Notes: generated from the letters alone by a model not told the origin. Positions 12,237-56,875 are shown, counted from the stretch's first letter. The stretch is DNA of 64,000 nucleotides from Octopus vulgaris (GCA_951406725.2 OX597819.1:19840001-19904000), one strand, 5' to 3'. Translations and numbers: made by a program.

Positions 12237-13049
12237 GGTTTGGATTTGAAAACACTGAAAGTGGGAGCATACCCTTTCGGCTTCTAATCGCTTCTGAAGA
12301 TCTGCTCGAAACTAACAGTGCCAGCAAACCCAAAATATGCAAGCGAAGGATTTCTGCTCTCCCTTTCCACCAGCGTGGGTTAAAATCAGCAAACACTATG
12401 TTTTTTCGGTAAATCCGAAAACATTAAATAGAGAGAGATGAATTATAATTTCAACAATTGAGGGAAAAATTAATTAATTAATTATTAATCAATATCACCA
12501 AGTGTTCAGTATGTAAAGGGACTAATCTTGAAATGTACGTTTTCAAATATCCTTTGCATTTGATTTTTTAATGTCTTTACCCCCATACTTTCGTGAGTTG
12601 AATTGAGCAAGCACTATATGAGAGAGATTTTCTTTAAGTATTAGAAATAGTTTTAAAAAAAGTTTTTTTAGCTACTATTTCTAATGAGTTCAGTATGTGG
12701 CAAAGTAATTTATTTTACTAAGCCCTTTTATATAATGTAATAATTTGAATTCGCCTTAAACGGTCCCTTTACATACTGAACACTTGGTGATATTGATTAA
12801 TAATTAATTAATTAATTTTACCCTCAATTGTTGAAATTATAATTCATCTCTCTCTATTTAATGTTTTCGGATTTACCGAAAAAACATAGTGTTTGCTGAT
12901 TTTAACCCACGCTGGTGGAAAGGGGAGAGCAGAAATCCTTCGCTTGCATATTTTGGGTTTGCTGGCACTGTTAGTTTCGAGCAGATCTTCAGAAGCGATT
13001 AGAAGCCGAAAGGGTATGCTCCCACTTTCAGTGTTTTCAAATCCAAACC

Positions 13050-13120
13050 AAGGAGTTCTGAGCTGATGATAGAAATGTCGAGTTTGACTAATCTTGAAAC
13101 GTACGTTCTCAAATAACCTT
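13050..13120 (+). ncRNA. Type I hammerhead ribozyme (R1 inverted unit)
   Basis: CTGATGA at 13063-13069, GAAAC-GTAC-GTT at 13096-13107. Confidence 0.7.
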
Positions 13121-13295
13121 TGCATTTGATTTTTTAATGTCTTTACCCCCATACTTTCGTGAGTTGAATTGAGCAAGATTTGAATTGAGAGAGATTTTCT
13201 TTAAGTATTAGAAATAGTTTTAAAAAAAGTTTTTTTAGCTACTATTTCTAATGAGTTCAGTATGTGGCAAAGTAATTTATTTTACTAAGCCCTTT

Positions 13296-13482
13296 TATAT
13301 ATATATATATATATATATATATATATATATATATATATATATATATATATATATATATATATATATAGATAGATAGATAGATATATAGATAGATAGATAG
13401 ATAGATAGATAGATAGATAGATAGATAGATAGATAGATAGATAGATAGATAGATAGATGGATAGATAGAAAGATAGATAGAT
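13296..13482. repeat. (TA)n followed by (GATA)n microsatellite
   Basis: Read directly from the sequence. Confidence 0.95.
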
Positions 13483-52890: not shown

Positions 52891-53640
52891 TGCGTGTGTG
52901 TTTGTATTATGCTGTCCACTCTTGAGCTAAGAAGACTACCACTGACCATTGCCCCAGTAAAATGCCAGCAATGCACTTGAATGAGGATAGTACACCCATC
53001 AATCAGTTTCAGCCAGGTTTGCGTCTGCGGCCTCCATGCTCACTGTGGGGCCCTCTGACATGACTGCGTATGACTTTTTTTGGTTTTCTTTGTTCTCATC
53101 GTTCCAGTTATAATCTCTGTTAAACGAAATTGTTTCCGGTCACACCCCTTTTACAAGCCTATTGCACTTATACGTGCCTTTGGCCAATTCTATTTGGCAA
53201 TAGAGAATCTTGATGAGGGTCAACTGGCGTTAAAAGCGATCTGTATCACCGGCATTAGCCCTTAGATTTGGGTCTGAGGCGAGATAGTACGGATGTCTTG
53301 GCGCCATTGATTTGGCAGTACGGAATTTATGTTAACTTATTGGACATCAACCCTTTCAATGTTTCTTTCGTTTTATTATCTATCTCGTCCTCTCCACCTG
53401 TCTCTCCCTTTCTCGCTTCTCTCTGATTTTCGTATTTGTATGTGAAGGTTTACTTCCAGTGACAAGAAGCACTGTCGTCAAAATCATCCGCACCAAATCT
53501 TATCATACCTTTAAATTAGAGAAATTATCCGAGCAGTACCATGATATAATTTTAACCTTCTCGTTTTCTTGCAGATCAAAGCTAATCGATGAGAGTCCAA
53601 TATTTAGGTTAACGCAGTTGTGGTTTAGTAATATCTAGCT

Positions 53641-53750
53641 TTACAGTTATACAAATCTCACTTTACAATTATACAAATCTCGTTATACAGTTATAGAAGT
53701 CTCGCTGTACAATTATACAAATCTCGCCTTACAATTATAAAAATCTACCT
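53641..53750. repeat. 22-bp minisatellite, 5 copies (consensus TTACAATTATACAAATCTCGCT)
   Basis: Units start at 53641, 53663, 53685, 53707 and 53729. Confidence 0.9.
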
Positions 53751-55972
53751 CGAAACGTAACCTATTCGGGACTGTCTTTTCACAGTAAGTATGGATGTTT
53801 GTGTATGTATCCTCCGTTTGAGAAAACTTAGATCTTATTCAAATTTGGTTGCTACTTCTAAAGCAGGAAAGCCTCAATGATAGCTGTGTTGTACAGTTGG
53901 CCTTATGCCGAAAAATGAACCAGGCATGAATAAAAAAAAAAAAAGGTTTATTTATGTTTCAAACAACAAAGTTTGAAAACAAGCAAAATCAAATCTTCAA
54001 CAAAAAAAAGATGAAATAATAATAATAATAATGATAACAATAATAATAATAATAATAATAATAATAATAATAATAATAATAATAATAATAATAATAATAT
54101 GTTAGTGACAATAGTTTTGCGTCAATGTTTTAGTTTCAATTGGTATGAAGTGAAGTGTTTCTGGATAGAAATAATGTGTTCCGTGCTACTTAATACATTT
54201 ATTGAACTGGCCATGCTCTAAGTGCGGTAGCAATGGTCAATTTGTCTTGACCAGCTGCCAACACATACTAATTGCTTCCAACTCTCCAGGATTTACGTGG
54301 TAATTTCCAACTGAGCGATTCTGGAATATCATAACACCTGTGCAATGGTCGTTGAATCTGTGTTAATCTAAACATGGAAACTAGTGAATAGATGTTTATG
54401 TATGTGTAGATATACCTGTTTAGTTTTGTTTTGTCGGTTCTGGAATTGTTTTGTGTGTGTTTGTACTTCATCATACATTTTTTATTTTGATATATAATTA
54501 CTGGCAGTTGGAAGTATAAACATACTTACCTACATATACACAAACACATATATATATATAGCCACGTATATGTGTATGTGTTCGTGTATACATGTATACT
54601 TACATATTCACATATATACAAATTCACGCGTATATATGTATGTATATATACATACATATACATATATATTTACATATATATATATACATATATATTTACA
54701 TATATATATATATATATGTATATATATATATATATATATATATATATATATACACATATATATATATATATATATATATATATATATATATATGTATGAA
54801 TATGCATATATTCAACACGCAACTGTTTGCATACGCAGACGCACACACAATCACACATATACACAGAGCACAAAATATACATGTTTATATATACAAATGA
54901 AAAAAAAAAACCCTGCAAAATAGCGTATTGAGGTCGACACTTTTATGTTATCAAATAATTGGGTGTGTTGGGAGATATGGGAATTGCATTTTAGCTTAGC
55001 GATATGAGGAAAGTGAGATAGGAGCAACGAGGTAGATAGACTGATAGACAGGTACGTAGACTGAATAAGAGAGAAACTGCGAATGTGTGAAGGTGCTAGA
55101 AGGACGAAGATGAATTAGTGCATGTGTGTGCTTGTATATACATTTGTGTACGTGCTTGTATATATGTGTATATATATATATATATATATATATATATATA
55201 TATATATATATATATATATATATATATATATATATATATATATATATATATATATATATATATATATATATATATATGTATGTATATACACTCATGTGTG
55301 TATGTATAAATTTTGTTTGTATATATCTACATATATGTATGTGTGTACGTGTGTTTGTGTGCATGGATAGATATACGGATAGATAGAAATAGGGAAAATA
55401 TTCGATATCTGAGTAAGATAGAATAAAGGAAAGTAACAATTTAAAAATAGAGGAAAATACACGGAAGGAAAGATATGTTGATAGGAAATTACATGGAGTA
55501 AATAAACAAACATAAAGAAAGAAAGGAAGAAAGAAAGAAATGGAAAATATAAAAAAAAAAAACACCAGGAAAAGTTGTTGGGGAAAGATAAAAGATGAAA
55601 GAATAAGAAAAAAAGAAAATCAGTCGATAAAAAGAAATGCGATGAAGATAAATGATGTGAGAAGAAATAGAGAGAGGTAGGAAGTTGTATGATAGCTCTA
55701 CTAATTAGTGCTAATTAGGTTAACGAGATATATTGTGAGAGTTTACGCTAATATTGCGAGTTATTTAATTCCTATTCAATGACAAGGCTCATTTTAAAAA
55801 ACTTTCATATGTGCAGCATTCGGAAAGGTAACATACAGGAATGATTGTATATAGACATGCATGTGTGTATGCATATATGTATGTATGCATGCATGTTTGA
55901 AAGTATGTTTGTATGTATGTATATATATATATATATATATATATATATATATATATATATATATATATATAT

Positions 55973-56875
55973 ATAAAAGGGCTTAGTAAAATAAATTACT
56001 TTGCCGCATACTGAACTCATTAGAAATAGCAGCTAAAAAAACTTTTTAAAACTATCTCCAATACTTAAAGAAAATCTCTCTCGTATAGTGTTTGCTCAAT
56101 TCAACTCACGAAAGTATGAGGGTAGAGACATTAAAAAATCAAATGCAAAGGTTATTTGAGAACGTACGTTTTAAGATTAGTCAAAATCGACACTTCTATC
56201 ATCAGCTCAGAACTCCCTGGTTTGGATTTGAAAACACTGAAAGCGGGAGCATACCCTTTCGGCCTGTTATCGCTTCTGAAGATCTGCTCAAAACTAACAG
56301 TGTTAGCAAATTCAAATATGCAAACGAAGAATTTCTGCTCTCCCCTTTCCACCAGCGTGGGTTAAAATCAGCAAACATTTTTTCGGTAAAATCCGAGGCA
56401 TTATATAGAGAGAGATGAATTATAATTTCAACAATTGAGGGTAAAATTAATTAATTAATCAATTTCACCAAGTATTCAGTATACAAAGGGACCATTTAAG
56501 GCGAATTCAAATTATTACATTATATAAAAGGGCTTAGTAAAATAAATTACTTTGCCGCATACTGAACTCATTAGAAATAGCAGCTAAAAAAACTTTTTTA
56601 AAACTATCTCCAATACTTAAAGAAAATCTCTCTCGTATAGTGTTTGCTCAATTCAACTAACGAAAGTATGAGGGTAGAGACATTAAAAAATCAAATGCAA
56701 AGGTTATTTGAGAACGTACATTTTGAATTTGCTAACACTGTTAGTTTTGAACAGATCTTCAGAAGCGATAACAGGCCGAAAGGGTATGCTCCCGCTTTCA
56801 GTGTTTTCAAATCCAAACCAGGGAGTTCTGAGCTGATGATAGAAGTGTCGATTTTGACTAATCTTGAAACGTACG
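55973..56875. mobile_element. Second R1 locus: about 1.35 units (551-bp period) plus ~155-bp inverted segment
   Basis: Starts at (TA)n-AAAGGGCTTAG. The hammerhead at 56148-56218 (minus) has GAAAC changed to AAAAC. The inverted piece 56720-56875 ends at GAAACGTACG. Confidence 0.85.

Follow-up and report, generated by a model that had tools for sequence, protein, structure and literature searches.

Retrozymes, Penelope-like elements and an octopus window

The non-LTR (long terminal repeat) retrozymes of metazoans are described in published accounts as non-coding, low-GC tandem units bearing one type I hammerhead ribozyme each (PMC7229834; preprint 10.64898/2026.07.22.740005), with strongly folded predicted circles and with copying from circular RNA by Penelope-like enzymes as the proposed route. 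Their circular RNAs are abundant in coral, mussel and axolotl (Cervera and de la Pena 2020, PMC7229834), and their link to Penelope-like elements has been argued recently (Li, Clavereau and Pollet 2026, 10.64898/2026.07.22.740005). We analysed a 64,000-nucleotide stretch of Octopus vulgaris DNA (GCA_951406725.2 OX597819.1:19840001-19904000; hereafter the window), AT-rich and rich in microsatellites, which holds two families, F1 and F2, that by their sequence features appear to be new members of the animal non-LTR retrozymes with Penelope-style insertions. We found that copying from an RNA continuous across the ribozyme site is well supported, and that a hotspot of insertion ends just upstream of the predicted cut is modest and suggestive, and unproven.

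Self-comparison of the window resolved F1, F2 and two 105-nt pieces termed F3. A relaxed hammerhead scan (CUGANGA core, GAAA, UH, helices I-III) identified complete type I motifs in F1 (predicted cuts after 13107, 12179 and 11614) and F2 (16775), with exact CUGANGA, GAAA and UH in both families, a stem I of 4 bp in F1 and 7 bp in F2, and a palindromic helix/loop III; these hammerheads score below the Rfam gathering threshold, at which the window gave no match. The tandem units are non-coding and low in GC, measure 566 nt (F1) and 535 nt (F2), and contain merely incidental antisense reading frames of about 100-120 codons. Their circular folds are more stable than 25 dinucleotide shuffles each (z -6.8 for F1, -7.2 for F2), and the circular minimum-energy fold of F2 contains hammerhead stems I and II. 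Positions below are given relative to the predicted scissile bond, -1 being the base before it and +1 the base after, and feature coordinates are collected in Table 1.

These units lie above the 150-450 bp range of one account (PMC7229834) and within the 51-972 bp range of the other (10.64898/2026.07.22.740005). In contrast to metazoan retrozymes as these accounts present them, F1 and F2 form short arms of 1.3-2.1 units, F1 occurs as head-to-head pairs, and we found no target duplication at F2 or locus B. A plant LTR retrozyme, with a type III hammerhead in its LTRs and a short target duplication, was rejected as a candidate on the type I topology and the lack of duplication at these same two insertions.

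F1 resembles Penelope-like elements in its partial tandems, its (TA)n bias and its inverted arm, which is truncated at the 5' side and attached through that end (Craig et al. 2021, PMC8557442); the Penelope-like combination of such an arm with microsatellite targeting was found at loci A and B, and two further inversion joints are known from contigs. A palindromic helix III is common to F1, F2 and Penelope-like hammerheads (Cervera and de la Pena 2014, PMC4209133), and the same source reports that palindromic hammerheads cleave poorly unless paired and already proposed circle-templated copying of more than one unit. Unlike autonomous Penelope-like elements, F1 and F2 have no reading frame, and comparison with two Penelope-like ends in the window gave no homology to an autonomous element's terminal repeat. 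A biochemical parallel is Poseidon of Anolis, which in vitro primes on both strands of AT-rich DNA, at internal positions of the RNA that lie downstream of the ribozyme, with uncut RNA as its main template (Frangieh et al. 2024, PMC11167929). Poseidon's priming is homology-free and occurs at two fixed sites, whereas in the window 3' ends fall where the unit is rich in TA (+188, +300) or with a possible overlap at -2.

Probable continuity of the copied RNA and the positions of insertion ends

Every F1 and F2 copy with both sides of the ribozyme site present crosses the predicted cut without insertion or deletion (8/8, one with a substitution at +1), and none of nine 5' ends falls exactly at the cut. 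Identity between the repeats of one locus is 98.4-100%, including 155 of 155 nt in F2 (16234-16927), compared to 90.3-95.8% between loci A and B. Because the crossings are seamless, the cut is devoid of ends and repeats within a locus are nearly identical, the copied RNA was likely continuous across the ribozyme site, whether circular or uncut. The arms, moreover, span 694-1209 nt, and the inverted piece of locus B reaches about 156-158 nt upstream of the cut. All this agrees with the first-pass annotation of the window in setting aside a self-cleaved linear monomer as template. Its further proposal, reverse transcription round a ligated circle, stands as to the continuous template and not as to the circle itself, since an uncut multimer yields the same DNA.

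The two F1 loci differ in their joints and their ribozymes. At locus A the arms share a 3-nt GAC/GTC overlap where they meet (12520 = -22), and the minus arm (11314-12522) carries intact hammerheads with cuts after 12179 and 11614, making it the only arm in which two complete hammerheads follow one another, as the preprint requires for the label 'active'. The start of the locus A plus arm (12520-12550) has three substitutions in 31 nt (-8, +1, +9), compared to about 1% elsewhere in the locus. The locus B arm is 90-96% identical to locus A, and its sole full hammerhead (cut 56161) is without the core G of GAAA. A blunt -7/-158 joint at 56719/56720 fits the letters without mismatch when compared to the locus A sequence. 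A C-to-T change at -8 common to both loci was considered as the mark of one master copy and rejected, the blunt joint explaining it at locus B. Long arms that are non-inverted or outer end 3' in (TA)n in 4/4 cases, at TA-rich points of the unit.

The same annotation held that 5' junctions of all copies lie 7-22 nt before the cut. Re-mapping recovered 12520 at -22, 16234 at -7, 51703 at -18 and 52350 at -16; for 56719-56724, given as 7-12 nt before the cut, -7 stood and -11/-12 would require a mismatch. The word 'all' did not survive, as a head-to-head insertion carries a 5' end on each of its arms and the far ones, at +222 (12522, minus) and -158 (56720), had been omitted; 56875 does stop 2 nt short of the cut and is an outer 3' end, not a 5' junction. 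Since the geometry of locus B is that of twin priming, the direct arm stopping where the inverted piece was primed, its -7 and -2 positions are probably one event and not two supporting hits. The caution that the two F3 pieces may not be independent proved sound: they are 93% alike, share the same end base and sit amid duplications at 88-90% (50648-51102 versus 51893-52352; 51515-51607 versus 52793-52884), so that they are likely not independent and may be one duplicated piece. The -18 junction is set only by the edge of a 177-nt inverted-repeat element, the 52350 start is ambiguous between -16 and -14 through an AA common to the flanking short interspersed nuclear element (SINE), and the relaxed scan found no CUGANGA core for F3, nor was there a longer F3 copy, in the window.

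In the verified families F1 and F2, three of five 5' ends in the window fall at -7 to -22, and F1 locus B and F2 begin at the identical nucleotide of the ribozyme, loop III's first base (-7). With windows picked after seeing the data and a null uniform along the unit, as for all such counts here, the binomial p is 0.0006 for -1 to -22, 0.004 for either side of the cut and 0.02 for any 16-nt window. Hammerhead-type Penelope-like copies with a locatable cut (906, 48817, 34463, 2193, 17071, 31612 and 34125) start at about -57 to -105, 0/7 in this zone, the starts of three of them (family F4) being limits of mutual similarity.

We then mapped one F1 unit (11829-12393) on contigs of four sequencing runs from three organisms (24 runs listed), and found F1 abundant in 4/4 (1,917-10,107 contigs each); read depth here is no measure of copy number. 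Opposite-strand joints occur at -22/-119, in runs X1 and X3 and taken as one, and in X2 at +257/+184. The -22/-119 joint repeats the -22 of locus A with a different partner; its zero shared letters fit a head-to-head arrangement, the probable orientation of the contig joints, and the reference has no internal repeat that could produce it. Together with the window, 4/9 5' ends lie in the zone (post hoc p=0.0003 for -1 to -22, 0.003 with both sides of the cut allowed and 0.009 for a 16-nt window placed anywhere), a count that leaves out six of eight internal joints (three deletions and three of unstated kind) which enter only the 2/16 breakpoint count below. A deletion joint in X1 (reference 12201-12336) ends at 12336 (-158), the inner end of the locus B inverted piece. 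A pattern scan for F1 in metagenome and viral contigs returned 0 loci.

Proposed two-ended priming and its alternatives

The reading we prefer, with slightly better than even confidence, is that a Penelope-like reverse transcriptase primes both chromosome ends on a continuous RNA, with the hammerhead 3' half as a favoured but optional end point. The enzyme would start from both broken ends where the DNA is TA-rich, its template, either a ligated circle or an uncut multimer, being continuous over the ribozyme site, and the two cDNAs would be joined head-to-head, bluntly or over 3 nt, in F1; arms may end preferentially, and not obligatorily, in the hammerhead 3' half. At locus B one RNA would have been continuous across two ribozyme sites, and a second primer may have annealed at helix III (-2) and blocked the first cDNA at -7.

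Twin priming of L1 has the same head-to-head geometry. As in L1, the end of the direct arm of locus B (-7) meets the site at which the inverted piece would have been primed (-2); unlike in L1, F1 arms exceed one unit, and locus A fits loosely. Our literature search found, among the papers listed, none applying twin priming to Penelope-like elements. That ends are truly in excess at -7 to -22 is only weakly suggested, and the most likely cause of such an excess would be the palindromic helix III, acting as the seat of the second primer, of a bound enzyme subunit or of a partner ribozyme. Stalling at stem II/III, as the first-pass annotation had it, found no support: both families leave -7 unpaired when folded as predicted circles, and -22 sits in the middle of a helix. 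The verified ends near the cut, three in number, fall at the second pass through the ribozyme, the first having been read through, and on a one-unit circle the RNA ahead at the second pass would be paired to cDNA and not folded.

Several observations weigh against this reading. Five of the nine 5' ends lie well away from the cut (+222, -158, -119, +257, +184), the twin-priming register of locus A is loose (+222 versus +193), and we found no autonomous partner homologous to F1 or F2 in the window. Contigs of the four runs show no site where many molecules start or stop; among 24 loose ends listed of 419, most of which are diverged element sequence, none lies at -1 to -25 upstream; and only 2/16 breakpoints of all internal joints fall at -1 to -23 (p=0.14). 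On the upstream side of the cut, depth is lower by 3.0-, 1.6-, 1.4- and 1.6-fold, with bin noise of 0.4-0.7 log2, a drop that a plain truncation gradient predicts too. Contigs collapse repeats and lose rare variants, making them a weak test in both directions. No dominant end site emerges from the contigs.

The same counts bear on a simpler account, rather unlikely in our judgement though to be taken seriously, in which the elements and the continuous template are as described and the cluster reflects small numbers, selective counting and random 5' truncation. The original count skipped two far ends and took in one 3' end and an unverified, probably duplicated pair, the contigs lack a hotspot, and priming fixed at sites 90-190 nt to the 3' side of the cut would lift the null above uniform. 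Chance must, however, accommodate 4/9 ends within 16 nt (p=0.003-0.01 with looser windows) and the exact recurrence of -22 at two loci and of -7 in two families. At the opposite pole, the ribozyme could serve as a retrotransposition landmark on a re-ligated circle, its palindromic helix III and its helix II setting where the Penelope-like enzyme primes the second strand or where cDNA ends, at the fixed registers -2, -7 and -22. We consider this unlikely; if true, thousands of genomic junctions would record circle-templated, two-ended priming directly.

Recurrence at -22 would also follow if transcription started in the hammerhead 3' half of a tandem master, leaving the first ribozyme incomplete and the next uncut, so that full-length copies would start shortly before a cut site, with no need for a circle. 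Three arms are built alike, as a stub, one unit and 150-190 nt (694-781 nt), and one hammerhead family, F5, has a fixed 5' start in 4/5 copies. Ovary transcripts of newt satellite 2 reportedly begin upstream of the cut. In Penelope, an internal promoter precedes the ribozyme (PMC2377424, PMC4209133). We nonetheless hold this account to be quite improbable: the inverted piece of locus B reaches past such a start on the upstream side, to -158, the ends differ (-7, -22), and locus A would require an uncut transcript of 3.6 units. Template jumping, raised by the first-pass annotation, would have the enzyme pass end-to-end between cleaved monomers and drop off a few bases later, which accounts for ends just past the cut; the substitutions at the start of the locus A plus arm, one at +1, are in its favour (p=0.006 post hoc). 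End-to-end jumps are expected to leave added or lost bases, as with R2. Because 0/8 crossings have gained or lost bases, jumping is disfavoured; the repeats of a locus also look like copies of a single template, no ends lie at the cut, and we regard jumping as very improbable.

Neighbouring elements and significance

The GIY-YIG endonuclease frame in the window shows that Penelope-like elements exist in this genome. A clade search with this frame gave a sub-threshold intron endonuclease match alone, and no sequence link between its element and F1 or F2 was found in the window. The SINE-like repeats of the window have a cephalopod-like look.

Table 1. Coordinates of the features identified in the 64-kb window.
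Feature	Position	Strand	Details
Locus A minus arm, F1	11314..12522	-	1209 nt, 2.1 units; 5' end +222; 3' end +300 into (TA)n
Locus A plus arm, F1	12520..13300	+	781 nt, 1.4 units; 5' end -22; 3' end +188..+193 into (TA)n
F1 type I hammerhead	13059..13111	+	stem I 4 bp, CUGAUGA (13063), helix II, GAAA (13096), helix/loop III ACGUACGU; predicted cut after GUU at 13107
Locus B arm, F1	55970..56719	-	750 nt, 1.3 units; 5' end -7; 3' end +188..+193 into (TA)n
Locus B inverted piece	56720..56875	+	5' inner end -158 (+409); 3' outer end -2; 98.7% identical to adjoining arm
Older repeat, outer target of inverted piece	56877..57205	-	presumably SINE-like; possible 2-5 nt overlap with ribozyme helix III sequence
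F2 insertion	16234..16927	+	694 nt, 1.3 units of 535 nt; 5' end -7; 3' end about +150 into (TA)n
F2 type I hammerhead	16699..16782	+	stem I 7 bp, CUGAGGA (16706), long helix II, GAAA (16764), palindrome ACAAUUGU; predicted cut after GUC at 16775
F3 piece	51599..51703	-	-18 to +87 around GAAACGCGUC; holds 3' half alone of candidate hammerhead
F3 piece	52350..52454	+	-16 to +89; 93% identical to 51599-51701, same final base
Element like a miniature inverted-repeat transposable element, with terminal inverted repeats	51704..51880	.	177 nt, adjoins F3 piece
Diverged F1-related piece	52533..52670	-	F1 +164..+302, z about 6 versus shuffles; convergent with F3 piece
GIY-YIG endonuclease frame, end of Penelope-like element	37891..38400	-	PF01541, E 1.4e-6, above cut-off; upstream CxxC motif; ends in stop
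F5, short hammerhead-type Penelope-like family	2119-2285, 16992-17164, 34066-34229, 62398-62459, 31544-31691	-, -, -, +, +	
F4, minimal-hammerhead family	847-997, 48758-48915, 34373-34520	+, +, -	related to F5 (z 11.5)
Decayed Penelope-like piece	36014-37130		inverted arm 36099-36176 versus 36786-36863, direct repeat, remnant GAAACGUU at 37014
Long reverse transcriptase frames like those of long interspersed nuclear elements	5430-7825	-	PF00078, E 3.7e-30
Dispersed family	58-657, 25563-26014, 46382-46616, 62599-63022, 63782-64000		about 180-nt internal tandem repeats and inverted pieces
Imperfect palindrome (77%)	45829-46377		550 nt, contains reading frame

Four of the five F5 copies start at one motif; where the cut can be located, in three copies, this start precedes it by about 90-105 nt. 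This fixed 5' end is better supported than the -7 to -22 cluster and possibly marks a transcription start or a defined non-autonomous element; a pattern scan for F5 in metagenome contigs returned 0 loci. One F5 copy and F2 face the same (TA)n run from opposite sides (16927-16992). The sequence common to F4 copies runs from about 60 nt upstream to about 90-95 nt downstream of the cut. The relaxed scan found no hammerhead in the dispersed family with 180-nt repeats, and the frame in the palindrome, which gave no Pfam match, is one we take to resemble a mariner transposase.

How animal retrozymes enter DNA and what hammerheads do in Penelope-like elements are treated as open questions in the literature cited here (PMC7229834, PMC8557442, PMC11167929). 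Our search found, among the works listed, none mapping retrozyme insertion ends relative to the cut, though the supplements of PMC7229834 and 10.64898/2026.07.22.740005 may show insertion structures. A young, abundant family with sharp junctions makes these questions testable from assembly alone. The end hotspot in the ribozyme rests on four ends; if true, it would link the ribozyme to the integration step.

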